Source: Candidatus Caccoplasma intestinavium (lineage in GTDB: Bacteria > Bacteroidota > Bacteroidia > Bacteroidales > UBA11471). From it: a DNA stretch of 64,000 nt. Shown one piece after another: positions 4,689 through 37,109 of this stretch (position 1 is the first letter of the stretch; every line of letters starts with the position of its first letter). Location of the stretch: assembly GCA_018715885.1 (NCBI GenBank), contig DVKT01000045.1, positions 5,526-69,525 of the forward strand, in the 5' to 3' direction. Both the position numbers and the translations under genes were made by a program. The notes beneath the pieces are model-generated. The model was not told the DNA's origin and did not search any database. It saw only the letters and a program-made list of their open reading frames with translations.

Positions 4689-4720
4689 CAAACGTACATA
4701 ATTCTCGTTTCATACACAAA
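4689..4720 (-). promoter_or_regulatory. Candidate Bacteroidetes sigma-A-type promoter for the Omp85-family gene
   Basis: The reverse strand has TTTG (4717-4720) and TACGTTTG (4689-4696, TAnnTTTG) with a 20-nt spacer, about 50 nt upstream of the ATG at 4639. Confidence 0.4.
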
Positions 4721-4861
4721 TTATGGCATTTCAAAAACCATTACTTTCTGTTATGTAATATATGCGCCGTTTTGTATTGTTCAGATTGTTTTATGAAAAT
4801 TTTTCTTGTCGGGAAGAATGTTTATGTGTAAATAGATTTTTTCTAAATGTTTATATAATCG

Positions 4862-4906
4862 GCTAATTCAAATGTACAAAATTGCAAATTCAAATGTACA
4901 GAATTT
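4862..4906 (+). repeat. Two direct end repeats (TTCAAATGTACA core), candidate transposase-binding sites at the fibre/modification end
   Basis: AAATGTACA occurs at 4870-4878 and 4892-4900, exactly 22 bp apart. Inverted copies lie at 38307-38315 and 38398-38406. Confidence 0.55.
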
Positions 4907-5061
4907 TTTCTTTTCTACGATTTAAGGGAATAAGATATTGTATTAAAGAAAAGAAGGTTATCTTTGGGAGATTATTATTGACAAAAATTCGTATCGGGTC
5001 TGTTTGGTTGTGAAACCGGACAGGCTTTTTTTATGTTGTCCGGCATGACCGGCTTGTATGT

Positions 5062-5101
5062 AAAAAATGTACTGAAAAGAATGATTTTCAGTACATTTTT
5101 T
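5062..5101. repeat. Perfect 17-bp-arm palindrome containing the end-repeat core; possible bidirectional terminator or protein-binding site
   Basis: AAAAAATGTACTGAAAA-GAATGA-TTTTCAGTACATTTTTT. Confidence 0.5.
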
Positions 5102-5135
5102 GTGTGTAAATATTTGGCTGTTACGAATAAAATAC

Positions 5136-5160
5136 CTATCAATTATGACATAATTGATAG
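5136..5160 (-). terminator. Hairpin immediately downstream of the methyltransferase gene
   Basis: CTATCAATTAT-GAC-ATAATTGATAG (11-bp perfect arms), about 80 nt past the stop at 5243. Confidence 0.45.
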
Positions 5161-5242
5161 GCTTGTCCTTTTGACAAAAGCCCGGGGTTTGATTCCTGTT
5201 TGAATGATGTTCAAATGGCGTTTTGCGCTTATCCGGCAGTTT

Positions 5243-6073
5243 TCAAAGGCACCATTTGTAGAGCATGATGTCCGTGTATTTGGCCTGATAGTTCATGTGT
5301 TCTCTTATTTCCGTCCTTCCGCAACCGGCGAAAGGGTTTCCGAGGTTTCTGTTTTTTCCTATCCATTCGCACAGTTCGACCACGGAGGATTTTTCCGAGG
5401 TGAAATAGATGAAAGGCTTGTCCTGCAAGATGGTGAGTACGTCGAGGTAATCGGACAGTTTCCAGCTCATGTTGTATGTGCCGACTTCGGTGGACAGATA
5501 AGGCGGGTCGATCAGGAAGACGACTCCGGGAAGGTCTTTGTAGCGGGCGAACAGTTCCTTGTAGTCGCAGCATGTGATGACAAGCCCGTCCAGATAACCG
5601 GGGCACAGCGGATAGTCCGTCGTCCGAATATTGTTGTAAAGGGTCTCCTTTTTCATCTCGTCGAGGTTCAGACTGTATTTCATGGAGAACATCAGCGACG
5701 ACGAGAGGGTGATGTAGTCGACATACCCGTTTTTTTCTTCCCGGGCGATGAGTCCGATTATCTTTTCCCGGGCTTCTCCGGTAATGCGTTTATGCCTTTG
5801 TATGTCCGATGCGGCCTTCCTTATGTCTGCCAGCAGGGCGTTTGTGCGGGGTATGGCTTCGAGTCTGTGGCGGTAGTTGTCGAAATCGTTGTAGACGACC
5901 GTCGCGTCGGGCCGTTGATGCTTGGCGATGTGCGATAGCAACCCCGAACCGCCGAACAGGTCGACAAAGGTACGGGCGTCCCCGAATTGTTGCAGGACGG
6001 AGATGAAGTCGCGCGCGAACATACGTTTTTGCCCCATGAAAGGCAGCGGGGCAGAGAGATACAGTTTTTTCAT
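5243..6073 (-). CDS. Dam-like (D12-class) N6-adenine DNA methyltransferase
   Basis: 276 aa. The N-terminal PFMGQKRMF resembles the Dam xGGK motif. DLFGGSG is the FxGxG AdoMet motif, VVYNDFD is Dam-like, and IDPPY is the catalytic DPPY motif. Confidence 0.85.
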   Translation of the reverse strand: MKKLYLSAPLPFMGQKRMFARDFISVLQQFGDARTFVDLFGGSGLLSHIAKHQRPDATVVYNDFDNYRHRLEAIPRTNALLADIRKAASDIQRHKRITGEAREKIIGLIAREEKNGYVDYITLSSSLMFSMKYSLNLDEMKKETLYNNIRTTDYPLCPGYLDGLVITCCDYKELFARYKDLPGVVFLIDPPYLSTEVGTYNMSWKLSDYLDVLTILQDKPFIYFTSEKSSVVELCEWIGKNRNLGNPFAGCGRTEIREHMNYQAKYTDIMLYKWCL

Positions 6074-6088
6074 TGTAAATGTAAAGGA

Positions 6089-6727
6089 TTATACGTTCAG
6101 TTCAAATTTCACATTTTCATTTCCCGAGAGCAGCTCACGGGTCTTTTCCCGGTTGTTTTCGTAGATGTGGACGTTCCCGAGGTTCAGGGTAATCGATCCG
6201 AGTGGCAGGTCTATCTGCCGGGCCATGAGGTAGAGGTGGTAGATGTCTGCGGGCAGACCGAGGTTGGCGTCGGAACTGCGTTGGTAGGCCGACACGACCA
6301 GCCGGCCGTCATCGATCTGGAACTGCACGAGGCTCAGGCAGGGGGCTTGGTTGCTTTCCGCACCGGTGGCGCCCAGAAAGAGGACATAGTTCTTGCTGTT
6401 GCGTTTTTCCCGGTTTATCCGTTCGATAAGCGGTGGGAGCTTTTCCAAATAGGTGGGGTAACTGTTTACCAGTACGGGGCCGCAATAATCCCACCAGTTG
6501 ATTCCTGCATCGCGGTATTTCTCCACGGTGCGCTCGCCTTGCATGAAGAGGTCGAGTTCGTTTCGCAGTTTTTTGCGGGCGATGTTGTGCCCCTCGAAAA
6601 TGTCGAGCAGGTCGGCGGGTGTAAGGTGTAACCTCTCGTTGAGCAGACAGATTATGTCCCCTTTCCTGTTGTGTTGCCGTTTGCCCGTATCAAGTATGCG
6701 GGCCAGCATTTGATAATATTTGTTCAT
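6089..6727 (-). CDS. Thymidylate-synthase-fold protein, truncated, with Asp at the ThyA Asn177 position (predicted dCMP C5-methyl/hydroxymethyl transferase-like)
   Basis: Start set at MNKYYQMLARILDTGKRQHNRKGD (compare ThyA [23 protein letters not shown]). Further matches are APCLSLVQFQ (ThyA APCHAFFQFY, catalytic Cys), YQRSSDANLGLPADI (ThyA YQRSCDVFLGLPFNI) and GNVHIYENN (ThyA GDTHLYSNH). The protein is about 212 aa and ends about 20 aa after the last motif. Confidence 0.75.
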   Translation of the reverse strand: MNKYYQMLARILDTGKRQHNRKGDIICLLNERLHLTPADLLDIFEGHNIARKKLRNELDLFMQGERTVEKYRDAGINWWDYCGPVLVNSYPTYLEKLPPLIERINREKRNSKNYVLFLGATGAESNQAPCLSLVQFQIDDGRLVVSAYQRSSDANLGLPADIYHLYLMARQIDLPLGSITLNLGNVHIYENNREKTRELLSGNENVKFELNV

Positions 6728-6790
6728 TCGATCGTTTTTTCGGTTTATTGTTTTATATTTGCAATATCTCACTCACATACGATAATGCAC

Positions 6791-6845
6791 AAAAGCGCCA
6801 TATCGCGGTCAGAAGGCATAAGCCCCCGACTGTGCGATATGGCGC
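6791..6845 (-). terminator. Strong hairpin plus T-run separating the lysis cassette from the ThyA-like/methylase module
   Basis: 12-bp perfect arms GCGCCATATCGC (6795-6806) and GCGATATGGCGC (6834-6845). On the minus strand the hairpin is followed by TTTTGTG. Confidence 0.55.
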
Positions 6846-6915
6846 ATCTTTGTGTTAGTATGTGGGTGAGATCTCTACTAACAGGTTGGGGGCTTTTTTA
6901 TCCCCCCTATATTTT

Positions 6916-7410
6916 TTATTTCTTCAAGAAAAGCCGTGTCGCCGTCCAAGCGACCGCTCCGGCTATGAGTACGAGCATTATGTTGCCCAACCATATCCTC
7001 ATTTGAGTGAACCAGTTCAATTCCTTTTCGACGGGAACGATCTTCGGCACCACTTTCTCACGGTAGATAATCGAGTCGCGCACCTGTACCCCTACCTCCC
7101 GGGAAAGGGTGTCGGTGCGGGGTTTTGTCTCCAACGAATGGGACAGGGAGCCGTCAGGGTTGACGCGGGCGTCGCTCACGGCGTAGTCGTTTTCGAGGTG
7201 CGAGGTGCTGTCGGCAGTCGTCCGCTCGGCCGATTGCGCCGGGACTTCGACAAAAAGGGTGTCGGTTACTTTTATCTCCCGTACCCGCTCTTCTACCCGC
7301 ACGCTGTCGCGTGCCTCTACTACAACGACCTGCCTGCCGGTGCGGCACGAGGAGAACAGCAGCAGGGCAACGGCAAAGGTCATCAATGAGACTGTCTTGT
7401 TTCTGTTCAT
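6916..7410 (-). CDS. Unimolecular-spanin-like lysis protein (N-terminal lipoprotein signal plus C-terminal transmembrane helix)
   Basis: MNRNKTVSLMTFAVALLLFSSC is lipobox-like, and the C-terminal WLGNIMLVLIAGAVAWTATRLFLKK is a TM helix. The start overlaps the upstream stop (ATGA). The gene lies directly after the putative endolysin. Confidence 0.6.
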   Translation of the reverse strand: MNRNKTVSLMTFAVALLLFSSCRTGRQVVVVEARDSVRVEERVREIKVTDTLFVEVPAQSAERTTADSTSHLENDYAVSDARVNPDGSLSHSLETKPRTDTLSREVGVQVRDSIIYREKVVPKIVPVEKELNWFTQMRIWLGNIMLVLIAGAVAWTATRLFLKK

Positions 7411-7817
7411 ACGATCTCTATTTTTATGGTTTCTCCGCCCGATTGGGCTGCCTTGCACAGTTCCACCAGCCTCTCTTCGTAAGGTGTTGAATTGATGACT
7501 TTCCCTTTTTCCTTGTTTTCACCCACCAATATGCAGCCCGCCGAATCCGCCGCCGTATTTCCCCGGTGGATAAGAACGCCCTCGAACTGCGGCACGTCCA
7601 GCAGCCGCGGCAGGTCGCGCCCGAACTTAGGCGACCGGTTCACGATGACTTTGTACACTCCCTCGGGTATGGCCGTCTCGCCGGGAACTTTTGCCTCGCC
7701 GCCCGCAAGGTCGCGCACCCGGTCTTCGAGCGTGTCGCAAAACCTTTCCCCGTCCACATACAGCGTGCCTATCGTATAGGCCTCTCCCTTGAATCGTCTT
7801 TCCAATAAAAGTTTCAT
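7407..7817 (-). CDS. DUF5675-like protein, putative peptidoglycan-acting lysis enzyme
   Basis: 136 aa. The pattern YTIGTLYVDGERFCDTLED...PRLLDVPQFEGVLIHRGNTAADSAGCILVGENK is one I recognise from Bacteroidales prophage DUF5675 proteins. The H...SxGC signature is reminiscent of the YkuD fold. The gene sits between the holin-like and spanin-like genes. Confidence 0.55.
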   Translation of the reverse strand: MKLLLERRFKGEAYTIGTLYVDGERFCDTLEDRVRDLAGGEAKVPGETAIPEGVYKVIVNRSPKFGRDLPRLLDVPQFEGVLIHRGNTAADSAGCILVGENKEKGKVINSTPYEERLVELCKAAQSGGETIKIEIV

Positions 7818-8344
7818 TTTTCTGTCTCCTTGTTTTTATCGGTAAATTCTTCGTTTATCTCCTCGCCGTGTTCCCGTTCTACGCGCTCGACGATGCGCTG
7901 CACGTTTTCGGGCAGGGCGCGTTTGAACTCGAAGCGTATCACGTGGTAGATGATGCGCAGGGCCTTGTTTGTGGGGTAAGCGTGTATGAGGTTGCGGAAG
8001 GCGTTCTGCACGTAGACGTACATGAAGACGTAGGTGAGCGACTTCATCACGATAAGGGCGGCCGTGTCGTCCCCGCAATTCAACATAATGGAGTAAATCG
8101 TTTCCGAGATAATCAAATAAAGTAATAATTCGGCCAACGCATTTTTGAACTTCCGGAAGGAGAAGTTTCGGCACCGGACGACGGATACGCCGTCGGCCCT
8201 CATACCCGCCCACACGTTGAAGGCGAACATGATAACAAGAGCAAATACGAATCCTTTCGTCGGGGTGAGGAACGCCAGCACGGGGCTTACTGCCGATACA
8301 GCTATGATGCGCCATTGTTCCCAGTTGAATATTTTGTCCATCAT
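7814..8344 (-). CDS. Putative holin (multi-pass membrane protein with a charged C-terminus)
   Basis: 3-4 hydrophobic segments (for example VSPVLAFLTPTKGFVFALVIMFAFNVWAG) and a tail EREHGEEINEEFTDKNKETEK. It overlaps the next gene (ATGA-type junction) and is first in the lysis cassette. Confidence 0.55.
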   Translation of the reverse strand: MMDKIFNWEQWRIIAVSAVSPVLAFLTPTKGFVFALVIMFAFNVWAGMRADGVSVVRCRNFSFRKFKNALAELLLYLIISETIYSIMLNCGDDTAALIVMKSLTYVFMYVYVQNAFRNLIHAYPTNKALRIIYHVIRFEFKRALPENVQRIVERVEREHGEEINEEFTDKNKETEK

Positions 8345-16072: not shown

Positions 16073-16705
16073 TCAGATGGAGATGAAGAGTTCCGTATTG
16101 TTGTCGCTGTACGCTTTGATGCTGAAATTTTGGTTGTTCACCCCTTTGGTGTGCGGGAACGAGAGCGATTCCACCGCCAGGTATTTGATACCGAGTATAA
16201 GAAGGATTTCTTGTGCCACCTCTATGCTCCGGCGTTCATTGAAAAGCGCGCTTATCGTTCGGACCTGTTCCTCGGGATAAGCGTTCCCGTCGAGGGAAAC
16301 GACACCTTGTATCTGTACGGTGTAATCATCCCGGCACCACCGTTCCTTGACGCTGCCGCCTGCCGTCCCTTTGGCGACGGAACGCCGTATGATCGAGTTT
16401 TTTCCGCTGACCGAAACCAGCGGCTCGATGGGGAAGGTGAACCATTCCGTGTCGTCCGGACGTTTCACTTTAAAGGGCATTTGCGAATGAATGACACCCT
16501 GGCGGGTCATTGCCCCCTTGACGGCCTCCGCATCGGAAACGGAAGTGATCGGGTTCCCGCCCGGCAGAATGATGTACGGGGGCAAGGTACCGAAACTGCC
16601 CAACGCTTTCGAGTAGCGGACGGCCGCCGGGTCCAGCGGGTTGCCGCTGTATGAAACTTCCACACGCGGAATCATTTTTTGCAGCTCGTATTCGATTTTA
16701 GCCAT
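16073..16705 (-). CDS. Tail protein following the tape measure
   Basis: Only the last 210 codons of the 418-aa track ORF are credible. The start MAKIEYELQK overlaps the TMP stop as TAATG. Confidence 0.4.
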   Translation of the reverse strand: MAKIEYELQKMIPRVEVSYSGNPLDPAAVRYSKALGSFGTLPPYIILPGGNPITSVSDAEAVKGAMTRQGVIHSQMPFKVKRPDDTEWFTFPIEPLVSVSGKNSIIRRSVAKGTAGGSVKERWCRDDYTVQIQGVVSLDGNAYPEEQVRTISALFNERRSIEVAQEILLILGIKYLAVESLSFPHTKGVNNQNFSIKAYSDNNTELFISI

Positions 16706-18678
16706 TATTGCGCCGTTTTTGCCATTTGTAAAACGCGGATAAAGAGGCTCTCCATGTCCCGCTCCATGTTTTCCCGATTGTCGTCGTAGCTGCCTTCGTA
16801 AACGATACGTTCGACCATGTTCCCGATAGAGATGTTGATGGTCGTGTTCCGTGTCCCGCCCGTGGCGACGGCTTCGGTGGCGTTTTTGGCCACCTCCCCG
16901 CCCGTAGGGTTGATTCCGCTTTCCGTTTCCGACCCGCCGAGTCCGGGTATGGACGGGGAAGATATGCCCAGTTTGGCCCCGAATCCCGAAACGATGTCCA
17001 ACAAAGACTTCTCCGAGTTCCACGACATATCGATACCGGCGAGCGACCGGCCGGCATTCTTCAAATGGTCGGCCACACGTTGCGCTCCTGCAGTAATGGC
17101 CTGTTGCCGGGCTTCCACGTCGGCACCGATGGCAGCTATGGCCGCCCGGTTTTCCGCACTGTTTCCCAAGCCTACCGCCTCTTTGAATTCGTACCAGGCC
17201 AACTTTATTTTGTCGAGCCCGATCATGATGCCGTTCACAAGGGTGGAGAAGTAGAGCTTTACCCCGTCGACGAATGCGTAGAAAGTGTATTTCATGAATC
17301 CGACGACACCTTCCCAAAGGGAACCCCAACCCTCGATTTTATAACAGAGGTAGGCGATGACGGCGATAAGGGCCACCACGCCGGCAATGATCCATGTCGT
17401 GGGGGAAGCCCACATGGAAGCGTTCAATGCTGTTTGCGCCGCCGTCCACGCCCATTTGGCCGTGGTAACTATACCCGCCCACAAGGCGGCCAGTTTGGTC
17501 CGGGCGATGACGATCCCCATCGTTGCGGCCATTATTCCCAACAAGGCGGTAAGGACGGTTACGGCCGTGTTCCCCCCGGAAAGCAGGTCGAACCAACGTC
17601 TGAAAGCAGACACGCAGCCCGTTACGCCCTTATGTATCCACGACAAAAGGGCGGCGGTGTAGTCGATGAGCCGGGAGAAAACGGCAAACGCCGGATTGAT
17701 GAACGGTTCGATGATGTCATACAGTTTCCAAAGCAGCATGGTGGCGTTGTCCAGCAAGGTGGACCATTTCCCGGACTTCGAGCTGCCGAGACGTTCGGTC
17801 ATGTTATAGAACAACCCGCCCGCAGAGGTGGCCGAAATGAAGGCGTCCCGGACCATTTCCGCCGATATTTCCCCCTTGCTCATTTCATCTTTCAACACGG
17901 CCATCGACTTGCCGGTCGTCCTTGATATTTCATTCAGGGGGTTGAAACCTGCGTTAATCATCTGCAGCAGGTCTTGACCCATGAGTTTGCCGGTAGAGGT
18001 CATTTGGGAAAAAGCCAGTGTCAGGGAATTCATCTTTTCTCGGTCGCCCATGGCGATATCCCCCAACATCTTGATGTTCGGCATGACACGGTCCGCCGCG
18101 ATGCCGAAGGAGAGCATCATTTTGGCATTTTCCTGCAAATCCGCCGCCATGTAGGGTGTGGCCGCCCCGTATTGCCGGAGGTCGGAGACCAACCGTCCGC
18201 CGGCTTCTTTCGATCCGAGCAGCACTTCAAAGGATATCTGTGTCTTTTCCCGATCGAAGCCCTTTTTCAAAGCCGCCAGTCCCGCCGTTCCGGCCAGTAC
18301 GATGGGATTGGTGATGGCCGAGGCGAACGGCAGGTTACCGAATGCTTCGGAAAAAGCCGCCTTCAAACGGCCTCCCGTCGTACTCTCCAAACGACGCAAC
18401 TGCCTTTCGAGCGATTGTATTTCCCGGTTGGTGGTGCGTATCGCTTCGATGTTTCCGGCCGGTATCCACTCCCGCTCGGCACGCAGGGCGGCAATACGTC
18501 CCGTCAGCGAACCGATGCTCACGCCGAAGTCCTGCATCGTGTGGTCGGTTTGTACGACCTGCCGTTGCACCCGGCTCCACACCGCCAGTTGCCGGTCGTT
18601 GGCAATGCCTATGCGCGAGAGCTTGCCCGAGATTTTATCTTGTAGGGAGAGGGTATATTCAACGATATTGCCTGCCAT
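16705..18678 (-). CDS. Tail tape measure protein
   Basis: 657 aa. The segment MLGDIAMGDREKMNSLTLAFSQMTSTGKLMGQDLLQMINAGFNPL is the tape-measure domain. Hydrophobic central helices are present, and the gene lies after the chaperone. Confidence 0.9.
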   Translation of the reverse strand: MAGNIVEYTLSLQDKISGKLSRIGIANDRQLAVWSRVQRQVVQTDHTMQDFGVSIGSLTGRIAALRAEREWIPAGNIEAIRTTNREIQSLERQLRRLESTTGGRLKAAFSEAFGNLPFASAITNPIVLAGTAGLAALKKGFDREKTQISFEVLLGSKEAGGRLVSDLRQYGAATPYMAADLQENAKMMLSFGIAADRVMPNIKMLGDIAMGDREKMNSLTLAFSQMTSTGKLMGQDLLQMINAGFNPLNEISRTTGKSMAVLKDEMSKGEISAEMVRDAFISATSAGGLFYNMTERLGSSKSGKWSTLLDNATMLLWKLYDIIEPFINPAFAVFSRLIDYTAALLSWIHKGVTGCVSAFRRWFDLLSGGNTAVTVLTALLGIMAATMGIVIARTKLAALWAGIVTTAKWAWTAAQTALNASMWASPTTWIIAGVVALIAVIAYLCYKIEGWGSLWEGVVGFMKYTFYAFVDGVKLYFSTLVNGIMIGLDKIKLAWYEFKEAVGLGNSAENRAAIAAIGADVEARQQAITAGAQRVADHLKNAGRSLAGIDMSWNSEKSLLDIVSGFGAKLGISSPSIPGLGGSETESGINPTGGEVAKNATEAVATGGTRNTTINISIGNMVERIVYEGSYDDNRENMERDMESLFIRVLQMAKTAQ

Positions 18679-19638: not shown

Positions 19639-20838
19639 TTATGTGGTTTTGAAACCGAGATCGACATCGATGTATTTGGCGTAACCGTTGGGCTTGACAC
19701 GCAAGCCGGCGGCAATACGGGAGGTGGCGAGAATGTCCTGCTTGTAATCGATGGAACACTCCACGCCGGTATCGTCAGGGTCGGCGGGGTCGTTTCCGAG
19801 GTTCCCGTTGGCGGTCATGCTGCTGATGATGGCTTGTTCGACATCGCCCTGCACGGAGGCGCACCAAGCCGGGGAAAGGGTCCCATCCGTGGCGATAGGC
19901 ACTTCGTCGTTGAGCGATTCGACAAGGGTGTTGTATGCGATACGGTAAGCCTTGTCTATGACCCGGCGATTCGACAGCGAATTGTAATCGTCCGTGGCAG
20001 CCGTGGCCAGCGGGTCATCCGCAATGAAGTAACCTGACTTGCCCACAAACGTCCGGAATGTGATGTATCCTTTGTCATTGATGCTTTCCACATCCGCTTC
20101 CTCGACGGTTTTCCCGCCGACGAACATCTCCACCGGCGTAAGGGCGCCGCTTTTCACCCGGCTGATCTTACGCTGGACGTCCGTGGCGGCGATTCGCCCG
20201 GCAACGATGCCCATGGCCGCGTTCGGGCTGTCTTGCGACGTATCGCCGATGACGATGCCGCAACGGTCATGGTTCATTGTTTTCAGATCGGGCAGGCCGG
20301 TATCATTGCCGGAATAGGCATACCCTTCAATCAAAGTGAATATCGGGGCATAACGGTCGTCTGTGGCCCATTCCCCGAGAGCCTGCGCCTTTGGCAGGGC
20401 GGCGATGACATCGCTGTCCATACCCTCGGAATCGTCGAGCTCGTAGCTTTCCCCGGGTGTTTTGAAGGCGATGAGTCCCCGTATGTTGCCTTTGGCCGAC
20501 AATAACAGCGATTTTGCGCCGCCGGCATTGTCCTTGTCGAGTACCGTGGCAAAAGCGGCTGTCTCGGCAAAACCCATGAGCCACAATTCCAGGCCGTCGC
20601 CGCCCTCCGCATAGAAATCCTTGACATTGCGGTAAAGGTTGGGATTGTTCTCGGAGGTAACACCCAAACTTTCAAGGTCGGCGAGCTTTTTGAGAGAGTA
20701 AGCCTTGCCCAGTTTGAAATTTTCTTCCCCGGCCACCTCTGCCGCACCGATAGCGATAAAGCCCAGGCAACCGTCGTCCATTTCGGCCACTTGCCCGAGA
20801 GCCCCGTTCGAATAGGTTATTTTTACACGTGGTAACAT
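19639..20838 (-). CDS. Contractile tail sheath protein
   Basis: 399 aa, positioned before the tube gene. The size and sequence character fit myovirus sheath proteins of Mu-like prophages. Confidence 0.65.
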   Translation of the reverse strand: MLPRVKITYSNGALGQVAEMDDGCLGFIAIGAAEVAGEENFKLGKAYSLKKLADLESLGVTSENNPNLYRNVKDFYAEGGDGLELWLMGFAETAAFATVLDKDNAGGAKSLLLSAKGNIRGLIAFKTPGESYELDDSEGMDSDVIAALPKAQALGEWATDDRYAPIFTLIEGYAYSGNDTGLPDLKTMNHDRCGIVIGDTSQDSPNAAMGIVAGRIAATDVQRKISRVKSGALTPVEMFVGGKTVEEADVESINDKGYITFRTFVGKSGYFIADDPLATAATDDYNSLSNRRVIDKAYRIAYNTLVESLNDEVPIATDGTLSPAWCASVQGDVEQAIISSMTANGNLGNDPADPDDTGVECSIDYKQDILATSRIAAGLRVKPNGYAKYIDVDLGFKTT

Positions 20839-22281: not shown

Positions 22282-23289
22282 TTATGAATTTTGAATGTTT
22301 AGCGTTGAACACATCTCTTTGTACTTTCTCTCGTACAGGTCGGGGTACTTCTCTTTCAATTCCGACAGACGGCCGGAACGGTCGATCTCGTCCCATGACA
22401 TCTTTGCAAGGCTTTCGCTTTCCCCGCCGTCGGCGATTTTCCCGCGCAGGCTCTGCCGGGCGGGCATGCTTCCGAGAATCTTACGGGTATTCGCGAAATC
22501 GGTCTCAAACAGCTTCAAGTAGGTCTCTTTCAGGTCGGCAGGGATTTTTCCCTCTTTTATGGCCTGCTCCACCTGGGCGGAGGCTTCGGCTTTCTCCCCG
22601 GCGGCCTTTTCCTCGGACAACCGTTTCACTTCGGACTCGGCTTTCTCTTTCGCTGCTTGCAGGGCGGCGATCTCCTGTTTATGGCTCTCCTGTAACCGGG
22701 TGATGGCGGATAACACCTCCGCGTCCCCAGCGTTTTCAGGCAGCCCGAGCTTCAAAGCAATTTCTTTCATTGGCTTATGATTTGTTTGTTTATGAATAAG
22801 ACGAACGGGGCACTCCCTTTCGTCGGATAATTCGATGACCCGGTCATTGTCGTCGTAAAGGACGATGCCCGCCGCATTCGGGTTGGAGGGTATGTCGACG
22901 ATCGACACCTCGCGCAATTCGCATTTCGTTACCGTCGCCCGGGTCTGTCCGGGTTTAAGGTGCTCGGGGGCTTCGCTCACCTCTATGATACGGATTCCGA
23001 TCGAGCAGGCTTTCAAAAAACCGCCTTCCACTTTATCCGCTATCTTGGCCGCAAAATCGTCTTTCTTGTCGAAAACGGGTTCGCCGGACATGATGCCGCC
23101 TTCCCCGGCCCCGTAGTTCTTCCAAATGCCGATGGGAAGTATCTCGTCTTTCTTACCGTACAATGTGCGGTGGTGGTTGAACAGCATCACGGGGTTCTTT
23201 TCAAAGCGCGTCAGGTCGATGCCCGATGTCAGTACCCGGAAACCGTAACTGTTTAATTCTTCGTCTGTCCAGATAAGTCTTTTTGCCAT
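22282..23289 (-). CDS. Prohead protease fused to a scaffold domain (Mu gpI/Z-like)
   Basis: The N-terminal part is HK97/S78-type protease-like (FNHHR...IGIW..., SIVDIPSNPNA). The C-terminal part is coiled-coil (ALQAAKEKAESEVKRLSEEKAAGEKAEA). Confidence 0.75.
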   Translation of the reverse strand: MAKRLIWTDEELNSYGFRVLTSGIDLTRFEKNPVMLFNHHRTLYGKKDEILPIGIWKNYGAGEGGIMSGEPVFDKKDDFAAKIADKVEGGFLKACSIGIRIIEVSEAPEHLKPGQTRATVTKCELREVSIVDIPSNPNAAGIVLYDDNDRVIELSDERECPVRLIHKQTNHKPMKEIALKLGLPENAGDAEVLSAITRLQESHKQEIAALQAAKEKAESEVKRLSEEKAAGEKAEASAQVEQAIKEGKIPADLKETYLKLFETDFANTRKILGSMPARQSLRGKIADGGESESLAKMSWDEIDRSGRLSELKEKYPDLYERKYKEMCSTLNIQNS

Positions 23290-23590: not shown

Positions 23591-24079
23591 ATGTCTCTTA
23601 CCAAACAAGAAATCGAAATACGGAAAGGATACGCTTTCCGGCTTTTCATGAGCGGGGAATCCCAGAAATCGATAGCCCGGACCGTGGGCACCACGGAAGC
23701 AACGGTAAGCCGGTGGGCGGGAAAAGAGGAATGGGACAGGAAAAAGCAGGAGCAGAACACTTCGACGCTTGCCCTGGCCAACTCCATGATGGCGGCGGCC
23801 CGTAAAATGTCGGAACTCATCATCTCGAACATCGAGAACGGGAATACCGATATAGGGACGATCACCAAGTGTTCGGACAACCTGGTCAAAATCATGGCGG
23901 CGGCCGAACGTATCGCCAAGACCGTTACCCGGGCGACGGTCATCGACGTGGTCATCGCCCTCGACCGCTGGCTGGTGCAACGGGCGGAAGTCGATGAGCG
24001 CCTGTCTCCCGAAATGCTCGAATCGATTACCGGCTTCCACAGGAAATATATCGAATATATCACCTCAAACGAAACATGA
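23591..24079 (+). CDS. Terminase small subunit (HTH)
   Basis: 162 aa. GESQKSIARTVGTTEATVSRW is HTH-like. The gene overlaps the start of the large subunit. Confidence 0.6.
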   Translation: MSLTKQEIEIRKGYAFRLFMSGESQKSIARTVGTTEATVSRWAGKEEWDRKKQEQNTSTLALANSMMAAARKMSELIISNIENGNTDIGTITKCSDNLVKIMAAAERIAKTVTRATVIDVVIALDRWLVQRAEVDERLSPEMLESITGFHRKYIEYITSNET

Positions 24080-25593
24080 TGGCCGGAGAAAAAGAGAGAT
24101 ATAAAAAAGCGCTCGAACGTTATGCCAAACATCTTCAAGAGATACGGAATATAACGTCCGTCATACCTAAGGGTACAGACGCGGAACGCACATCGCGCAT
24201 GGTCCGGGCCAGGGAGGATTACGATTTTTTCGTGCAAGCCTATTTCCCGCATTTGGCGACCTCCCGATGCGGGAAGTTCCAGATAGAAGCGGCGGAATAC
24301 ATAAAAAACAATCCACGCGCACGGTGCGTATTCGAATGGGCTCGTGGCCATGCGAAAAGTTCACACATATCGTTAATGATTCCGCTTTGGCTGAAAATAC
24401 AGGAAAACCCCGAGCCGATGATCATGGTGCTCGTGTCAAAGAGTGCGGACATGGCCCGGCGGCTGTTGTCCGACTTGCAGGCGGAGCTCGAGGGGAATGA
24501 CCTGTTTCTGCATGATTTCGGAAGGCAGAAAACGGACGGCCTTTGGACGGACGGGGAATTCGTCTGCGCCGACGGTTCCATGTTCATCGCCCTCGGGCGC
24601 GGACAATCGCCGCGCGGTATCAAAAGGCGGGGGCTGCGGGTGAATTACATCAGCATCGACGACATCGACGACGATGAGATGTGCCGTAACCCCCGGAGGG
24701 TGGACGAAGCCGTCGACTGGTGCCTGAGCGCACTCATCGGCACCATGGCCATGGGGCGGGGACGGTTCGTCCTGGTTGGAAACCGCATCGGCCAATATTC
24801 CATTCTCGGGGAAATGGCCTCGCGCCCCCATTTTTACCATACCGTCGTGAATGCCCTCGACAAAAAAGGAAAACCGTCCTGGTGGCAGAATTACCAACTG
24901 TCGGAAATCAACGACCTGCGGGTGGAAGTCGGCGAACGGCGCTTTCAAAAGGAATACATGAACAATCCGCTGGACGAAGGGTCCGTTTTCGAGCGGAAGT
25001 ATATCCGCTACGGCAAGATGCTTCCCTTGCGGGAATACCGCGCAATCGTCTCTTATACCGACCCGTCGTTCAAATCGTCGTCGAAAAACGACTTCAAGGC
25101 CACGCTTTTGGTGGGGCTGACCAAAGAGGGGAAGTTCCATGTCATAAAGGCTTACGCCGACCAGACGAAAGTGTCGGTCATGGTGGGGTGGCATTACGAG
25201 ATAAGCGACTTTGTGGGGGATACGCCCGTCCGGTATTACATGGAGTCCAATTTCATTCAGGACTTGTTGATGGACGAGTTCCGCAAAGCGGGTATCGCCT
25301 CGGGAAAGCAGATCCCCATTACCGGGGACGGACGGAAAAAACCGGAGAAATTCGCACGCATCGAGGCGCTGCAGCCCTTTTTCCAACGCGGGGAGATTCT
25401 TTTCAACGAGGCGGAAAAATCGTCGGGCGGCATGAAAGTGCTCGAAGACCAGCTGCTGACATTCCAGCGGGGAAGCAAGGCGCACGACGATGCGCCCGAC
25501 GCCCTCGAAGGGGCCGTGTGGTTGCTGAGCAACAAAGTAAGGACGGCGAATACCCGTTACGTCGTCGGACACAGACCTAACCGTAAATATTGA
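24076..25593 (+). CDS. Terminase large subunit
   Basis: 505 aa with an ATPase region (MVLVSKS..., YISIDDIDDDE is Walker-B-like) and a C-terminal nuclease motif KAHDDAPDALEGAVWLL. Confidence 0.85.
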   Translation: MMAGEKERYKKALERYAKHLQEIRNITSVIPKGTDAERTSRMVRAREDYDFFVQAYFPHLATSRCGKFQIEAAEYIKNNPRARCVFEWARGHAKSSHISLMIPLWLKIQENPEPMIMVLVSKSADMARRLLSDLQAELEGNDLFLHDFGRQKTDGLWTDGEFVCADGSMFIALGRGQSPRGIKRRGLRVNYISIDDIDDDEMCRNPRRVDEAVDWCLSALIGTMAMGRGRFVLVGNRIGQYSILGEMASRPHFYHTVVNALDKKGKPSWWQNYQLSEINDLRVEVGERRFQKEYMNNPLDEGSVFERKYIRYGKMLPLREYRAIVSYTDPSFKSSSKNDFKATLLVGLTKEGKFHVIKAYADQTKVSVMVGWHYEISDFVGDTPVRYYMESNFIQDLLMDEFRKAGIASGKQIPITGDGRKKPEKFARIEALQPFFQRGEILFNEAEKSSGGMKVLEDQLLTFQRGSKAHDDAPDALEGAVWLLSNKVRTANTRYVVGHRPNRKY

Positions 25594-26015
25594 CATATAT
25601 GTATTTATCCGCAGAAGAATTGAAAACAGCCATGTATGCCCATGTCGTCGAAGAGATTACCGGCGGGGACGTTTCAATCGTTTGCCAGGCCATCGAAGCA
25701 GCCATGGAAGAAGCGAAGTCTTACCTGTCCAATCGCTACGACGTGGAGAAGATATTCTCGGCCGTCGGAGAGGAACGGAACGCCATGATTCTCGAAAACG
25801 TCAAGGTCATGGCCGTATGGCGCATCATCACCATCTGCAATGCCGAAACCATCTATGAGATGTGGAAAGAGCGCTACGACCGCGTGGTCGACTTTTTCAA
25901 GAACGTGGCCAAAGGGATTGTCGCGCCTGCCTTGCCGCTCCGGACGGACGAAAAAGGCAATATCGAACTGCAAGCCAAATTCGGCTCTAACCCCAAATTT
26001 CATCATTCTTTATAA
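25590..26015 (+). CDS. Head-tail connector-type protein (DUF1320 / Mu gp36-like)
   Basis: 141 aa. The N-terminal YLSAEELKTAMYAHVVEEIT has the character of DUF1320 proteins. Confidence 0.5.
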   Translation: MTYMYLSAEELKTAMYAHVVEEITGGDVSIVCQAIEAAMEEAKSYLSNRYDVEKIFSAVGEERNAMILENVKVMAVWRIITICNAETIYEMWKERYDRVVDFFKNVAKGIVAPALPLRTDEKGNIELQAKFGSNPKFHHSL

Positions 26016-27268
26016 TGGAAAGAAAAAAACAGGACCATGCCCCTTCCGGGAGAAAACGGAAGAACGGGGCCTCGCTGGTGCGCCGTGTCATCGAACGGCA
26101 CGAGTCGATAACCCGGAAAGACATCGCCGACTGGAAAAAGGCCCGGATACAGGCTACCAACGATTACGAACCGAGGCAGGTACTTCTGCAAAACCTCTAT
26201 GAGGAAATCATGCTCGACGCACTGATGTCTTCCCAGGTGGGACTGCGTATCGACAAAAGCCAGGGGGTGGACTTTTCGCTGGTGCAAGGGGGAAAAACCG
26301 ACGAGGAACAAACCCGGATACTCAAGGACAGCGGCCTTTTCGACCAGCTGGTCGAGCTGATTGTCGAAAGCAAGTTTTACGGCTGTTCCTTGATCGAGTT
26401 TTCCTATACGCCCGACGGTATCCGCGCCGACCTCGTGCGCCGCCAGAACGTGGCGCCCAAGACGGGACGGTTTTATCCCGACACCTACGGGAGCGAATTC
26501 GTGTCGTACCGGGAAGAACCGGAATTCGGCCGGTGGCTCGTCGAACTATACCCCCGGGAGGGGGATTTGGGGCTGCTCAACAAGGCCGTCCCCTATGTGC
26601 TGATGAAGAAGTTCGCCATGTCGTGCTGGAGCGAGCTGTGCGAAATCTTCGGCATTCCGCCGCGCGTCATGAAAACGAACACGTCCGACCCCGAAATGCT
26701 CTCCCGGGCGGAACAAATGATGAAGGAGATCGGTTCGGCCGCCTACTTCATCATCGATACCGAGGAGAACTTCGATTTTGCACAGGGTGTCGCCACGAAC
26801 GGGGAGGTGTACAAGAATCTCATCGATACCTGCAACCAACAGCTTTCCCTGCTGAACCTCGCCGCTGTGCTGGGGCAGGATACCGTGAACGGGAACCGCT
26901 CGAAGGAGGAAAGTTCCTCCAAATTGCTCGACTCCGTGGTGAAGGCCGATAACCGTTTCATAGAATCCTCTTTCAACAGGATCATACTCCCGGCGCTCGC
27001 CTCCATCGGCGTCCTCAAACCCGGGCTGCGGCTGGTCATCGCCAAGGAGGTCGATGTGGAAAAGCTGTGGAAAATGGTACACGAGGGTTCCCAGTACTAC
27101 GATTTCGACATAGACTGGATACGCGAGACGTTCGGCATCGAGGTTACCGGATTGCGTACCGACACGGCTCCGGCGGTTTCTCCGGCTCCGGGGAATAAAA
27201 AGGACGGAAAAGCGGGCGCTTCCGGAAGTAGGGAAACACGGGAGCTGCCGGATGATTTTTTCTTTTAA
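26015..27268 (+). CDS. Portal protein (Mu gp29/DUF935-like)
   Basis: 417 aa, lying between the terminase and MuF genes. Confidence 0.75.
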   Translation: MERKKQDHAPSGRKRKNGASLVRRVIERHESITRKDIADWKKARIQATNDYEPRQVLLQNLYEEIMLDALMSSQVGLRIDKSQGVDFSLVQGGKTDEEQTRILKDSGLFDQLVELIVESKFYGCSLIEFSYTPDGIRADLVRRQNVAPKTGRFYPDTYGSEFVSYREEPEFGRWLVELYPREGDLGLLNKAVPYVLMKKFAMSCWSELCEIFGIPPRVMKTNTSDPEMLSRAEQMMKEIGSAAYFIIDTEENFDFAQGVATNGEVYKNLIDTCNQQLSLLNLAAVLGQDTVNGNRSKEESSSKLLDSVVKADNRFIESSFNRIILPALASIGVLKPGLRLVIAKEVDVEKLWKMVHEGSQYYDFDIDWIRETFGIEVTGLRTDTAPAVSPAPGNKKDGKAGASGSRETRELPDDFFF

Positions 27269-27285: not shown

Positions 27286-28584
27286 TTGAAGTCCACCCTT
27301 GACGACCTCTATTTCAACGGTTCTTTAACGGCGTTGGAAGAGTGTTTGAAAGAGTTCGGGCAGTCGGTGGCGGGAATATTCCCTCTGGCGGACGGGGAGA
27401 TGTTCGGCAGGATCATCGGGGAGATTGCGGACGATTTCGATGCGGCCGTCAACAAACGCCTGCTCGACATATACGCGGGCAACCTGCTCGGAGGCGTCCG
27501 TGGCGTTTTCGGGGATACCGGGTACGGAAGCCGTTATTTCGGCCTTGCAAACCGGCTGGAAGCCAACGCGGCCAGGTTTGCGGCTTACAAGGCTTACCAT
27601 GCTACGGAACAGGTCAAGAGGCAACTGACGGCCCGCGTGTCGAAAGAAGAGGCCCTGAAAAGGGCCGAAGGGGCTTTGAGGGCGTTCAACAGATACCAGG
27701 CCGCGGAATACAACACGGCCGTGGCACGCTGCCGGACGGCCAGGCAATGGACCGACTTCAACCGGGAAGGACATGCGGACATTTTCCCGAATATCCGTTG
27801 GTTGCCGAGCCGGAGCGCCGAAAGACGTCCGCAGCATGTCCCTTACTATAACCGCGTATGGGCGAAGACCGACCCGTTCTGGCTGGAAAACCAGCCCGGC
27901 AACGAATGGAACTGCAAATGTGACTGGGAGGAAACCGCCGATGACGTGGACCACGACGGGGTGAAAGTTACACCCCCGCCGGCGGGCCTCTCCGGAAATC
28001 CCGGCATCACCGGGGAGATCTTCTCGGAAAAGTCGATATATTTTACGGCCAACGGGCACGACCGGGTAGGCAGGGGGATATTGGAACTAGGCGAAGGCGG
28101 TTTCTTCGGCAAAGGGAAAATCGACGCGGCGGAGGTGCTGTCGCACGTGTTGCACGAGTCGGGCGAAATCGCCGGGAACATGGAGGTCGCTACCCTGTTT
28201 TGCCGGCATAACAAGGGGGTAAGGCGTATAAAACTGCTGCCCAATGTGGTAAAAGAGGATGCCGGCCTGAGGCCCCGGTTCTACCCCAAAGGCATGACAC
28301 CGCGCGGGGCGAATAAAAATGCCGATGCCGTCATCGAATGGGACAACGGCGACAAGTGGGTCGTCGACTTCAAGTGCATGCAGGGGAACGGGGCGAAACT
28401 CAAAGAACGCCTGTATGACGCTTACGAGCAGGCCGACTATGCCGTCGTGAAGATATGCGGGGAAATAAAAGAGGTTCAAAAAGTGATCGAAACGGCCGAA
28501 CGGTTCATGAAAGGGCATCATCAATTCAAAGGGTTGATTGTCTATGATAATTCGGACAGGGAAATCTTTCGGATAATAAAATAG
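27286..28584 (+). CDS. MuF-like head morphogenesis protein with a C-terminal PD-(D/E)xK-like extension
   Basis: TTG start. The MuF core has NEWNCKCDWEE. The C-terminal ~180 aa contains ANKNADAVIEWDNGDKWVVDFKCM (D...DxK). Confidence 0.75.
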   Translation: MKSTLDDLYFNGSLTALEECLKEFGQSVAGIFPLADGEMFGRIIGEIADDFDAAVNKRLLDIYAGNLLGGVRGVFGDTGYGSRYFGLANRLEANAARFAAYKAYHATEQVKRQLTARVSKEEALKRAEGALRAFNRYQAAEYNTAVARCRTARQWTDFNREGHADIFPNIRWLPSRSAERRPQHVPYYNRVWAKTDPFWLENQPGNEWNCKCDWEETADDVDHDGVKVTPPPAGLSGNPGITGEIFSEKSIYFTANGHDRVGRGILELGEGGFFGKGKIDAAEVLSHVLHESGEIAGNMEVATLFCRHNKGVRRIKLLPNVVKEDAGLRPRFYPKGMTPRGANKNADAVIEWDNGDKWVVDFKCMQGNGAKLKERLYDAYEQADYAVVKICGEIKEVQKVIETAERFMKGHHQFKGLIVYDNSDREIFRIIK

Positions 28585-30156: not shown

Positions 30157-30825
30157 TCATGCCTCGGTCATGCCGAGGGGGATCTGTTTCCATGCGCCGC
30201 TCTTTTCGTCTTTGTATTCGGCGTAAATGTAGGTTTTCGACAATTGGGGGATATAGGCCTCTTCTATGATGGTGATCCCTTCGTTCAGCCGTTCGTCGTT
30301 CAACTCGTTCGCCAGCTTGCGCAGTTGCAGGGCCTTGTTGGCTTTCAGGTTCCCTGCGGCGTCCCGGGAGAGTAACCGCATCATTTGGTTGACGAGCGCC
30401 CGCGTGGTGTCGTCTTTGATGAGCGAGAGGCACGCTTCTTTGACAATGGCGACGCCGTCGTTTACGGTGTCTTTCCAACCGTCGCACTGGTGGCGGCCGA
30501 TGATGATGCGGCGGGTACCGTCGGAAGTGGTGAAGGTATGGGACTTCTGGTCTTCTTTTACCCGGCGCAGGACATCGGCTTTCATCTGCAATATGGCGGA
30601 AAACCGTTCGAGGATTTCTCCCTTGACGGCCGAAATCGTTCCGCTCAGCTCTTTGAGCCGGGGAAGGGCGGCGGTTACTTCTTCATCGACCAGCTGGCCG
30701 TAGGCAGCACGGTCGCGTTTGGCTTGTTCCTTTGCCGTCTTGGCGGCTTTGGCCCGTTGGTAGGCTTCATACTCGGCGAGTTGCGCTTCCGTCATCATGA
30801 CGGCCTGTTTCTTCTCTTCGTTCAT
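30157..30825 (-). CDS. DUF3164-like protein (conserved in transposable phages)
   Basis: 222 aa; both the position and the sequence character fit DUF3164. Confidence 0.5.
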   Translation of the reverse strand: MNEEKKQAVMMTEAQLAEYEAYQRAKAAKTAKEQAKRDRAAYGQLVDEEVTAALPRLKELSGTISAVKGEILERFSAILQMKADVLRRVKEDQKSHTFTTSDGTRRIIIGRHQCDGWKDTVNDGVAIVKEACLSLIKDDTTRALVNQMMRLLSRDAAGNLKANKALQLRKLANELNDERLNEGITIIEEAYIPQLSKTYIYAEYKDEKSGAWKQIPLGMTEA

Positions 30826-36611: not shown

Positions 36612-37015
36612 CTTTCGACTATTTGGTTGTAAATCTTCTGTAAGGAATAAAGTACGTCGCCCCACGAGTCGAGTGTCATGTCGTCAAAAGAGGCAAGGAC
36701 TTTCCCATCGATGATGATTTTGGCCATGTTCGTGTGGCGGCTCACTTCCAGCATTACCCTTTGGCCGAACCGCTGCCGCATAATTCCTTTTCCATGATTA
36801 TATTCCGTCACAACCCCTTTGGGCATATATCCATCAGGGTGGCGTTCCCCCGTATAAATCAACCCGCCACGCTCCAATGCGGCGGCACGGAGCATTCTTG
36901 CCCGGTCGCTGTTGCGCTCGTAGTTGAGGGCTCGCCGCAAGTCATTGCGCCCTACCTTGAATTTCTCACGTATTTCACGAAGCTCTGAAACCGGCAATAG
37001 GATTTGTTTTTTCAT
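36608..37015 (-). CDS. First early-operon gene (Ner/Cro position), putative DNA-binding regulator
   Basis: 135 aa, divergent from the repressor. Assigned by position only. Confidence 0.35.
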   Translation of the reverse strand: MKKQILLPVSELREIREKFKVGRNDLRRALNYERNSDRARMLRAAALERGGLIYTGERHPDGYMPKGVVTEYNHGKGIMRQRFGQRVMLEVSRHTNMAKIIIDGKVLASFDDMTLDSWGDVLYSLQKIYNQIVER

Positions 37016-37072: not shown

Positions 37073-37109
37073 CTTTGCAAATATACAAAGTACTTTGTAA
37101 TATACAAAG
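37073..37109 (-). promoter_or_regulatory. Early promoter overlapped by two palindromic operators
   Basis: The minus strand has TTTG (37105-37108) and TATATTTG (37078-37085) with a 19-nt spacer. The operators are CTTTGCAAATATACAAAG (37073-37090) and CTTTGTAATATACAAAG (37093-37109). A further dyad GTGGTT-N7-AACCAC lies at ~37056-37074. Confidence 0.55.

Follow-up and report, generated by a model that had tools for sequence, protein, structure and literature searches.

A thymidylate synthase-fold protein with a predicted cytosine switch and a Dam-like methylase form the terminal gene pair of a Mu-like Bacteroidales prophage

Introduction

Does a phage gene that is named thymidylate synthase (TS; ThyA) in its database records make dTMP, or does it act on cytosine nucleotides? 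The question is raised by a 64,000-nt stretch of DNA (hereafter the window) from Candidatus Caccoplasma intestinavium, a member of the Bacteroidales (contig DVKT01000045.1 of assembly GCA_018715885.1). The window carries a Mu-like prophage whose last two genes encode a TS-fold protein and a Dam-like DNA methyltransferase (MTase). A reading of the sequence alone, here termed the original prediction, had proposed that the first protein possesses the residue that turns the TS fold towards dCMP, and that the two genes form a DNA-modification module at the end of the genome where phage Mu carries mom. Here we show that the protein belongs to a TS subfamily that is invariant for this residue and is usually encoded next to the MTase, and we weigh what the pair may do for the phages that carry it.

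Results

A TS-fold enzyme distinct from housekeeping ThyA

The first protein is a true TS-fold enzyme. It matches the Pfam family Thymidylat_synt (PF00303; E=4.7e-21, 75.6 bits against a cutoff of 24.3 bits) and phrog_160 of the PHROG collection (E=1.3e-30), and its AlphaFold model, built from a 24-sequence alignment, has a pLDDT of 95.8. In Foldseek the model aligns with the ThyA enzymes of E. coli, Elizabethkingia and M. tuberculosis with TM-scores of 0.83-0.86, while models of viral TS enzymes and of T4 gp42 rank after these; sequence identity is 25% to E. coli ThyA and 14% to T4 gp42. The protein is not, however, a housekeeping ThyA, in agreement with the original prediction. Against the NCBIfam equivalog models of TS it scores 27-67 bits where the cutoffs are 108-576, the best match reaching 67 against 327, and both H147 and the R126/R127 pair of E. 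coli ThyA are lost. The possibility that the gene stands beside a canonical host thyA was rejected, as the window contains a single TS-like gene.

Residues were mapped with HMMER against E. coli ThyA structures and with MAFFT in an alignment containing E. coli ThyA and T4 gp42, the latter taken from the T4 genome. The register of the alignment is considered valid because T4 C148, D145, D171, D179, H216 and Y218 fall at their published numbers. The motif-by-motif correspondence with ThyA that had been described was reproduced by both methods, including retention of the catalytic Cys. With the E. coli residue given first and that of the window enzyme in brackets, R21 (R21), E58 (E57), W80 (W79), Y94 (Y90), the catalytic C146 (C130), R166 (R150), S167 (S151), D169 (D153), H207 (H187) and Y209 (Y189) are kept, while W83 (C82), V93 (S89), R126 (K112), R127 (N113), L143 (Q127), H147 (L131) and N177 (D161) are changed. 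The last two of these are the Leu that had been noted after the catalytic Cys and the Asp that had been placed at the dUMP/dCMP specificity position, and both stand; neither an Asn at this position nor a missing catalytic Cys was found. The protein had also been described as about 50 aa shorter than ThyA at its C-terminus. The difference in length is correct (52 aa), but its location is not: the deletions are internal (~33 residues at E. coli ~222-254 and ~15 in the 85-105 loop), and the tail is preserved, L210-N211-V212 aligning with V262-A263-I264.

Conservation was counted in 61 distinct TS-family sequences from related loci. Asp at the N177 position, the catalytic Cys, D169, R166, H207 and Y209 are present in 61/61. 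Gln127, Ser151 and Asn113 are each found in 60/61, Lys112 in 58/61 (with Arg in the other 3), and the position of R21 is mostly Lys. All 61 sequences have Ser or Thr just before Y90, at the position of E. coli V93, in a spacing unlike the S94-x-Y96 of T4, and 58 end in LN(V/T), the other three alignments stopping short of the C-terminus. An exhaustive search of 1.8 billion cluster representatives returned only 162 proteins below 1e-10. Asp occupies the N177 position in all 19 of the nearest full-length relatives that were aligned, down to 27% identity, and T4-like td enzymes, at ~25% identity, come next among phage proteins. The ratio of nonsynonymous to synonymous substitution (dN/dS) between the window TS gene and its close relatives is ~0.07, a value that reflects purifying selection.

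In three distant TS-family genes (P0144, P0243 and P0217, at loci L004, L091 and L092) in-frame TGA codons occur at Trp positions, including the invariant W79, and these genes apparently belong to phages or hosts in whose code TGA stands for Trp. The distant members P0137, P0144, P0142, P0243 and P0217 lie on contigs of 1.3-3.4 kb, where gene context is uninformative, and a locus search with the divergent subset of the family returned 4 loci only.

Active-site residues point to a cytosine deoxynucleotide

The substitution N177D converts TS into a dCMP methylase, as shown for the E. coli and L. casei enzymes (PMC8670742; PMC13326640). TS homologues on cytosine-modified metavirome contigs are best told apart from those on unmodified contigs by two positions, 177 and 147 (PMC8670742), and the Asp-at-177 rule is in routine use for predicting dCMP-modifying enzymes (PMC13326640). 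The Asp at this position in the window enzyme would therefore select a cytosine rather than a uracil nucleotide. A folate cofactor is suggested by the retention of E58, D169 and W80. With respect to the sugar, Ser at S167 together with Arg at R126 marks enzymes acting on deoxy substrates, while Ala together with Lys marks the CMP-preferring MilA (PMC5175136); a deoxy sugar is thus favoured, with some ambiguity, because the window enzyme keeps the Ser but has Lys at R126. On these residues the enzyme likely uses a cytosine deoxynucleotide as its substrate and folate as its cofactor.

The product is harder to predict. A bulky hydrophobic residue at L143 accompanies methyl products, and Asp or Glu at this position accompanies hydroxymethyl products (PMC13326640). 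Whether the window enzyme transfers methyl or hydroxymethyl cannot be read from its sequence, because the equivalent residue is Gln. Thus Gln127 stands in place of the hydrophobic residue that defines Xp12-type methylases, and the family, with Gln in 60/61 sequences, lacks the Asp or Glu that T4-type hydroxymethylases have three residues before the catalytic Cys. Other cues to the product are mixed: a small side chain at W83 and a hydroxyl ahead of the catalytic Tyr are T4 gp42-like, whereas the tail resembles that of methyl-transferring TS enzymes, and the terminal Leu-Asn-Val aligns in such a way that it may close the active site, as expected of an Xp12-type enzyme.

Further identities were considered and rejected. 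The flavin-binding 5-hydroxy-dCMP synthases are recognised by Asn at D169 (PMC13326640), and D153 is kept in all 61 sequences. A MilA-type CMP hydroxymethylase would match at Lys112 but not at S151, the Ser that is so widely kept. Canonical ThyA does not fit either, given Asp for N177, L131 for H147, Q127 for L143 and K112/N113 for R126/R127. In contrast, the ThyA of the lytic Bacteroides phage B124-14, which emerged from a search made via a distant Asp-type relative and aimed at Xp12-type references, keeps the Asn, the His, the Leu and the Arg-Arg pair. Phages of these hosts do therefore carry canonical TS, from which the Asp type stands apart as a lineage of its own.

The partner gene and its linkage to the TS gene

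The second protein is, by sequence and by predicted structure, a Dam-like N6-adenine MTase of the alpha class (D12). It matches PF02086 (32.1 bits against a cutoff of 22 bits), phrog_56 (E=5.7e-28) and, from end to end, the PADLOC model MTase_II (PDLC03268; E=6e-54). The FxGxG and DPPY motifs on which the original assignment was based are indeed present, motif I (DLFGGSG) preceding motif IV (DPPY), and both are invariant in 18 homologues. A search of the Protein Data Bank (PDB) with the sequence gave no match; the AlphaFold model (pLDDT 81) has E. coli Dam and DpnM as its best PDB folds in Foldseek (E ~1e-6, TM 0.45-0.57). The enzyme is an orphan because no nuclease gene accompanies it and the end of the prophage comes next. 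Compared with five prophages that carry close relatives (loci L085-L089), the MTase is ~75% identical and the TS protein 96%. The dN/dS of the MTase is ~0.1-0.16, and its C-terminus is shorter and different (276 aa against 282-285 aa in the five prophages). Such fast divergence suggests, and is compatible with, rapid turnover of sequence specificity.

A DNA search located the pair at the right end of Hankyphage (Bacteroides phage p00), of its B. thetaiotaomicron relatives and of Porphyromonas phages, with ~70% nucleotide identity; the annotations there read 'thymidylate synthase (ThyA)' for the one gene and 'DNA methyltransferase' for the other. Close TS proteins form >8000 clusters, and a relative is encoded in 561 IMG/VR stretches and in 513 stretches of a one-genome-per-species collection (185,579 species), the latter from Bacteroidales of the families Prevotellaceae, Bacteroidaceae, Muribaculaceae, Rikenellaceae, Porphyromonadaceae and Tannerellaceae. 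The view that the module is unusual thus did not survive, as the cassette is standard in Hankyphage-type phages and in hundreds of Bacteroidales genomes.

Linkage was assessed in the 160 best loci (80 viral and 80 genomic). An MTase of the same family directly adjoins the TS gene in 138/160 (72/80 viral and 66/80 genomic), the TS gene coming first in 77 and the MTase gene in 61, and in two loci the TS gene is paired with a different Dam-type MTase. The genes frequently overlap by 4 nt or are separated by 0-3 nt, and it is from this spacing in relatives that co-transcription of the pair is predicted. Directly 5' of the cassette, in 143/160 loci (for example L007:7687-7929 and L002:40709-40951), lies an 80-aa gene known as hp44 in Hankyphage (phrog_17790), which is absent from the window phage and its closest relatives. 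Among 21 diverse members of the hp44 family, 13 match the Mor transcription-activator family below threshold, the best with E=7.8e-5. In phage Mu it is the C protein that turns on mom, and the position of hp44 recalls that of C. The cassette is shared by the siphovirus Hankyphage, the sheathed phage of the window and integrase-type phages, and it therefore moves between transposable and non-transposable phages. Two genomes hold two copies each at separate sites, Segatella salivae DSM 15606 (L126 and L139) and Hoylesella timonensis (L163 and L173), which several prophages or a transposed prophage could account for.

The pair is the last coding unit of a Mu-like prophage

The element is a Mu-like transposable Bacteroidales myovirus prophage of ~33.6 kb (~4855-38425); the original prediction had likewise seen a transposable Mu-like prophage of Bacteroidales. 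It displays the features by which Mu-like phages are recognized, namely a MuA-type transposase, a MuB-type ATPase, a repressor at the left end and varied insertion sites, and its closest named genomes are Bacteroidales. The presence of a tail-sheath gene identifies it as a myovirus, unlike the siphovirus Hankyphage. The five prophages whose TS is 96% identical to that of the window share the order tail-fibre and DUF5675 genes, TS gene, MTase gene, and then run into five different sets of host genes. These unrelated flanks indicate insertion of the transposition type, and place the TS/MTase pair as the last coding unit. The statement that the two terminal genes are co-oriented and 15 nt apart is likewise upheld by the open reading frames, by the exact spacer and by the host genes that come next in these relatives.

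The prophage ends are approximate, as they were placed from the sequence that the relatives share. This stops at ...GCGGATTAT(AC), and its counterpart in the window is ...GCCGATTAT at 4855-4863 (reverse strand), ~390 nt from the MTase stop. Two tandem 22-nt repeats adjoining the right end (4862-4883 and 4884-4905) carry AAATGTACA, which recurs in inverted orientation near the left end (38308 and 38399), with further copies at 38066 and in the palindrome at 5062-5101; a motif search found 15 copies against 5 expected. The repeats are candidate transposase-binding sites. TTTAT, present at 4850-4854 and at 38423-38427, is tentatively a candidate 5-bp target duplication. A short-word BLAST comparison of the two end regions, tried as a means of locating the ends, gave AT-rich noise only.

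At the other end of the element a -33/-7 promoter pattern of the Bacteroides type (TTTG...TATATTTG) is directed at the early operon. It lies directly opposite the gene for the S24/LexA-like repressor, and the two likely form the lysis-lysogeny switch region. Adjoining the transposase gene is a gene for a PAPS-reductase-like protein (phrog_424, E=2e-33; weak PADLOC match to SspD, E=1e-9), a possible third gene of DNA-modification type in the prophage (DndC/SspD-like).

A stem-loop precedes the TS gene

The TS gene is separated by 188 nt from the stop codon of the preceding gene, and it was here that a 12-bp-stem hairpin followed by a T-run had been reported to insulate the module from a lysis cassette. 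The 12-bp stem is real (6795-6806/6834-6845), is followed by UUUUGUG and forms the core of a bulged stem-loop of ~46 pairs. The minimum free energy predicted for the 141-nt region is -61.7 kcal/mol (z = -6.4), and the structure is kept in the five close relatives with compensatory changes; of the 46 predicted pairs, 3 show double changes, and double changes of the compensatory kind are seen in the core (U-A to C-G) and in the outer stem (CUCAC/GUGAG to CCAAU/AUUGG). One subgroup has an extra 12-nt mini-hairpin in the 3' arm. Separate termination of the module, on the other hand, is no more than plausible: only four U follow the core stem, and these are able to pair with an upstream CAAAG; a terminator scan made no call at the stem-loop on the minus strand; and no match to the Bacteroides -33/-7 pattern (TTTG...TAnnTTTG) lies between the hairpin and the TS start. 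An Rfam search of 4700-7500 assigned the stem-loop to no family, its only hits being chance miRNA-like matches to the palindrome at 5062-5101. The stem-loop may terminate transcription, mark a site of processing or have a regulatory role.

The label lysis cassette for the genes further upstream could not be confirmed from family libraries, which return DUF5675 and PHROGs of unknown function. The gene directly before the stem-loop encodes a protein that resembles a unimolecular spanin, with LLFSSC as its lipoprotein signal and a transmembrane helix at the C-terminus; the neighbouring proteins belong to DUF5675 and phrog_15037, families to which no function is attached. Coordinates are collected in Table 1.

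Table 1. Positions in the window of the terminal gene pair, its surroundings and other prophage features
Feature	Position	Strand	Remarks
Prophage right end	~4853-4857		Approximate; by analogy with relatives
Second palindrome	5062-5101		Perfect, 17 nt; 3' of MTase gene; inverted-repeat search
Terminator-like palindrome with T-run	5134-5162	minus	Perfect, 13 nt; 3' of MTase stop; terminator scan
Dam-like MTase gene	5243-6073	minus	276 aa; predicted D12, alpha-class; DLFGGSG and DPPY
Spacer, TS stop to MTase start	6074-6088	minus	15 nt, read from sequence
TS-fold gene	6089-6727	minus	ATG at 6727 (MNKYYQ...); 212 aa
Stem-loop 5' of TS gene	~6762-6877	minus	~115 nt; within the 188-nt gap
Gene preceding the stem-loop	6916-7458	minus	Product resembles unimolecular spanin
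DUF5675 gene	7407-7817
phrog_15037 gene	7814-8344
Tape measure	16705-18678
Tail sheath	19639-20838
Protease/Mu-I-like protein	22282-23289
Terminase	24076-25593	plus
Portal	26015-27268	plus
MuF-like protein	27286-28584	plus
DUF3164 protein	30157-30825
MuB-like AAA protein	32964-33818		AAA_22
Transposase	33835-35832		phrog_310; MuA-type
PAPS-reductase-like protein	35892-36665	minus
-33/-7 promoter pattern	37078-37108	minus
S24/LexA-type repressor	37130-37819	plus	Left end

Discussion

Proposed role of the pair and the evidence that opposes it

Expression of the orthologous genes has been recorded in Hankyphage, for which an inducible lysogen exists (PMC12135933). In the published RNA-seq supplement, which gives log2 changes after silencing of the repressor with dCas9, the gene for ThyA, a TS protein 80% identical to that of the window, rises by 1.99, 1.54, 1.77 and 4.37 at 1, 2, 6 and 22 h, respectively, and the MTase gene by 3.88, 4.24, 1.62 and 2.40, all changes being significant (PMC12135933). 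Induction on repressor silencing indicates that the orthologous cassette belongs to the lytic programme. The reading to which we incline, with a confidence that goes only a little past the even point, is that the pair is a lytic-cycle DNA-modification cassette, which would furnish C5-modified deoxycytidine and N6-methyladenine (6mA) and so protect packaged DNA. When the prophage enters lytic growth by replicative transposition, the two genes would be switched on as one transcript. The TS-fold enzyme would add a one-carbon group at C5 of dCMP, yielding 5-methyl-dCMP or 5-hydroxymethyl-dCMP, and host kinases and the host replisome would build some of the modified cytosine into new phage DNA, to which the orphan Dam-like methylase would add 6mA. 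Packaged genomes would then reach the next host partly protected from restriction, in a manner analogous to Mu Mom but with other chemistry.

It should be emphasized that a number of observations weigh against this proposal. The original prediction spoke of a nucleotide-level cytosine-C5 modifier, and the Asp that specifies cytosine is indeed there, but helper enzymes did not turn up: the prophage genes scanned in the window and the 48-gene Hankyphage annotation yielded no dNMP kinase, dCTPase, deaminase or DNA polymerase. For TS homologues, clear modification of DNA was obtained in published assays only with a phage dNMP kinase expressed alongside (PMC13326640). The source of dCMP would also be puzzling in a phage that does not degrade host DNA. 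Within the active site Gln127 fits neither the methylase nor the hydroxymethylase signature, and the analogous D145N mutant of T4 gp42, altered three residues before the catalytic Cys, is inactive. The cluster of phosphate-binding Arg residues is weakened (R126 to Lys, R127 to Asn and R21 mostly to Lys), and Lys at R126 is the residue of MilA and of ribo-type substrates. The two genes are not obligately coupled: in ~9/160 loci, including phages with an adjoining integrase gene, the TS gene is present without the MTase, and one phage of quite different layout carries the TS gene alone. Finally, the literature searched holds no chemical or sequencing evidence for modified bases in these phages, and nothing on modified bases was found in publications on Bacteroides temperate phages or on this TS family. 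A more specific form of the proposal, in which Hankyphage-type phages in general package partly C5-modified cytosine made by an unrecognised minimal TS subfamily, relying on host kinases and the host replisome only, with 6mA in addition, is possible but doubtful.

Alternative explanations

It could be argued that the missing kinase and dCTPase, without which modified dCMP may not reach the triphosphate, are missing because the TS-fold enzyme acts on a cytosine nucleotide to manipulate the nucleotide pool and not to mark DNA. The enzyme would drain or divert dCMP or CMP, or generate a modified nucleotide that poisons competing phages or serves as a signal, and the MTase would be an independent anti-restriction gene that shares its slot. 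The MilA-like Lys at R126, the presence of the TS gene alone in some integrase-type phages and in one non-Mu phage, and the much faster evolution of the MTase are all consistent with this explanation. Ser at S167, however, favours deoxy substrates; tight linkage is kept in the large majority of loci and in both gene orders, and pairing with an alternative Dam also occurs; and all characterised Asp-type phage TS homologues feed DNA modification. Nor does the TS protein match any defence model in PADLOC, for which reason its identity as a known defence system was rejected. We regard manipulation of the nucleotide pool as improbable, though it merits consideration. The same shortage of helper enzymes could instead reflect a TS action without precedent, directed at cytosine in DNA or at a di- or triphosphate, exerted jointly with the base-flipping methylase, or leading to some other C5 adduct. 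Two of the four Arg residues that clamp the phosphate are lost, the invariant Gln at the product-determining position matches no characterised class, and adjacency to a DNA methylase is conserved. Against such novelty, R166 and a basic residue at each of 21 and 126 are still there and the 3'-OH ligands H207 and Y209 are intact, as for a free mononucleotide, and the compact 212-aa fold has no added DNA-binding domain. To our knowledge, no enzyme of the TS family acts on polymers, and we consider an action of this kind quite unlikely.

Every database name for the TS protein is 'thymidylate synthase', its closest solved structures are ThyA enzymes, and the folate-type E58, D169 and W80 are retained, all of which would suit an auxiliary enzyme that boosts dTMP during phage replication and tolerates the Asp. 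A single change to the Asp that is invariant here is nevertheless sufficient to make E. coli or L. casei TS a dCMP methylase, H147 and the R126/R127 pair have gone, the equivalog scores fall far below their cutoffs, and B124-14 shows what a genuine Bacteroides-phage ThyA with all canonical residues looks like; an auxiliary ThyA is thus very improbable. We attach equally little weight to the view that the two genes have no relation to each other and are passengers of an accessory site prone to recombination at the end of the prophage, with a TS that has little current function. It is true that the tail and lysis genes upstream of the pair in the window are missing from the 80 related viral loci, save for one partial match, and are replaced there mostly by neighbours of the diversity-generating retroelement (DGR) type or by others, that siphovirus, myovirus and integrase-type phages alike carry the cassette, and that gene order flips between loci. 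Passengers, however, would not be expected to be under strong purifying selection, to keep an active site invariant in 61 sequences, to be induced with the lytic cycle or to remain adjacent through rearrangements. A small share of the probability, comparable to that of an unprecedented TS action, goes to explanations other than those listed.

Significance

Asp-type TS homologues that modify dCMP are already known, and the gene pair is deposited and annotated in Hankyphage records. What this study adds, from sequence comparison, is the recognition that a very widespread 'ThyA' appears to be a minimal TS subfamily of its own, in which the cytosine switch is combined with a product-determining residue of no established class, and that this subfamily, usually together with a Dam-like methylase and a Mor-like gene, seems to end the genomes of temperate transposable phages that lack nucleotide-metabolism and replication genes of their own. 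If the enzyme modifies cytosine nucleotides, thousands of genomes carry a wrong annotation in 'ThyA', which databases and papers pass on as the name of a housekeeping-type enzyme. Many species of Bacteroides and related gut bacteria are lysogenised by phages of the Hankyphage family, and few phages of the human and animal gut are as widespread; were the lytic-cycle modification cassette confirmed, the unusually broad host range of these phages may owe part to DNA modification, and modified cytosines could affect cloning, sequencing, restriction-based and transfer experiments. It would also be the first case of a temperate Mu-like phage that modifies cytosine at the level of the nucleotide pool, and the TS fold may thereby gain a new class of product or substrate. 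In addition, the rules by which modified bases are predicted from metagenomes find a clean test case in a TS fold of 212 aa whose methyl/hydroxymethyl decision point is occupied by an invariant Gln.

Comparison with known systems

The closest known counterpart is Hankyphage p00/jmh43_hp (BK010646, PV107405), likewise a Mu-like transposable phage of Bacteroidales, whose two final genes at the right end belong to the same two families (80% amino-acid identity for TS and 66% for the MTase). Hankyphage, however, is a siphovirus with a DGR 5' of the cassette and the 80-aa Mor-like hp44 directly before it, whereas the window phage has a tail sheath and DUF5675-type genes upstream, and in place of hp44 a long stem-loop. 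The Hankyphage papers call the gene ThyA and contain no discussion of cytosine specificity or DNA modification.

Among TS-fold enzymes E. coli ThyA is the best match in both sequence and structure, sharing the catalytic core and aligning to the last residue of the C-terminus, but it differs at N177 (Asp in the window enzyme), H147 (Leu), L143 (Gln), W83 (Cys), R126 (Lys) and R127 (Asn). The Xp12-type dCMP methylases share the TS fold, Asp at N177, the folate-type D169 and the tail needed to seal the site for hydride transfer. They differ at L143, which is hydrophobic in the Xp12 signature and Gln in the window, a comparison made with the published signature and not with the Xp12 sequence. Xp12-type phages are moreover lytic, replace all C and have a linked deaminase, an enzyme not found among the prophage genes scanned in the window. 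T4 gp42 shares Asp at the specificity position, the catalytic Cys, a small residue for W83 (Val in T4, Cys in the window) and a hydroxyl by the catalytic Tyr, but has the essential Asp145 three residues before the Cys, where the window enzyme has Gln; it keeps R123/R124 and lacks the C-terminal tail, the window enzyme being the reverse. T4, furthermore, supplies its own dCTPase, kinase and glucosyltransferases. MilA/BcmA and enzymes of the RB69 gp48 type are likewise cytosine-specific TS homologues with Asp at 177, and MilA has the same Lys at R126. MilA differs, however, in having Ala at S167 and Asp at L143, and the flavin-binding 5-hydroxy-dCMP synthases of the gp48 type in having Asn at D169 and Glu at L143, while the window enzyme has Ser, Asp and Gln, respectively, at S167, D169 and L143.

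The Mom protein of phage Mu has an acyltransferase fold and carbamoylmethylates adenine in DNA, and Com is a zinc-finger translational activator. The com/mom genes resemble the pair described here in their location at the extreme right end and in their lytic expression, and a small Mor/C-like gene lies just upstream in most relatives. The two modules are not homologous, however: the window pair consists of a TS-fold protein and a predicted S-adenosylmethionine-dependent methylase, neither of the Mom nor of the Com type.

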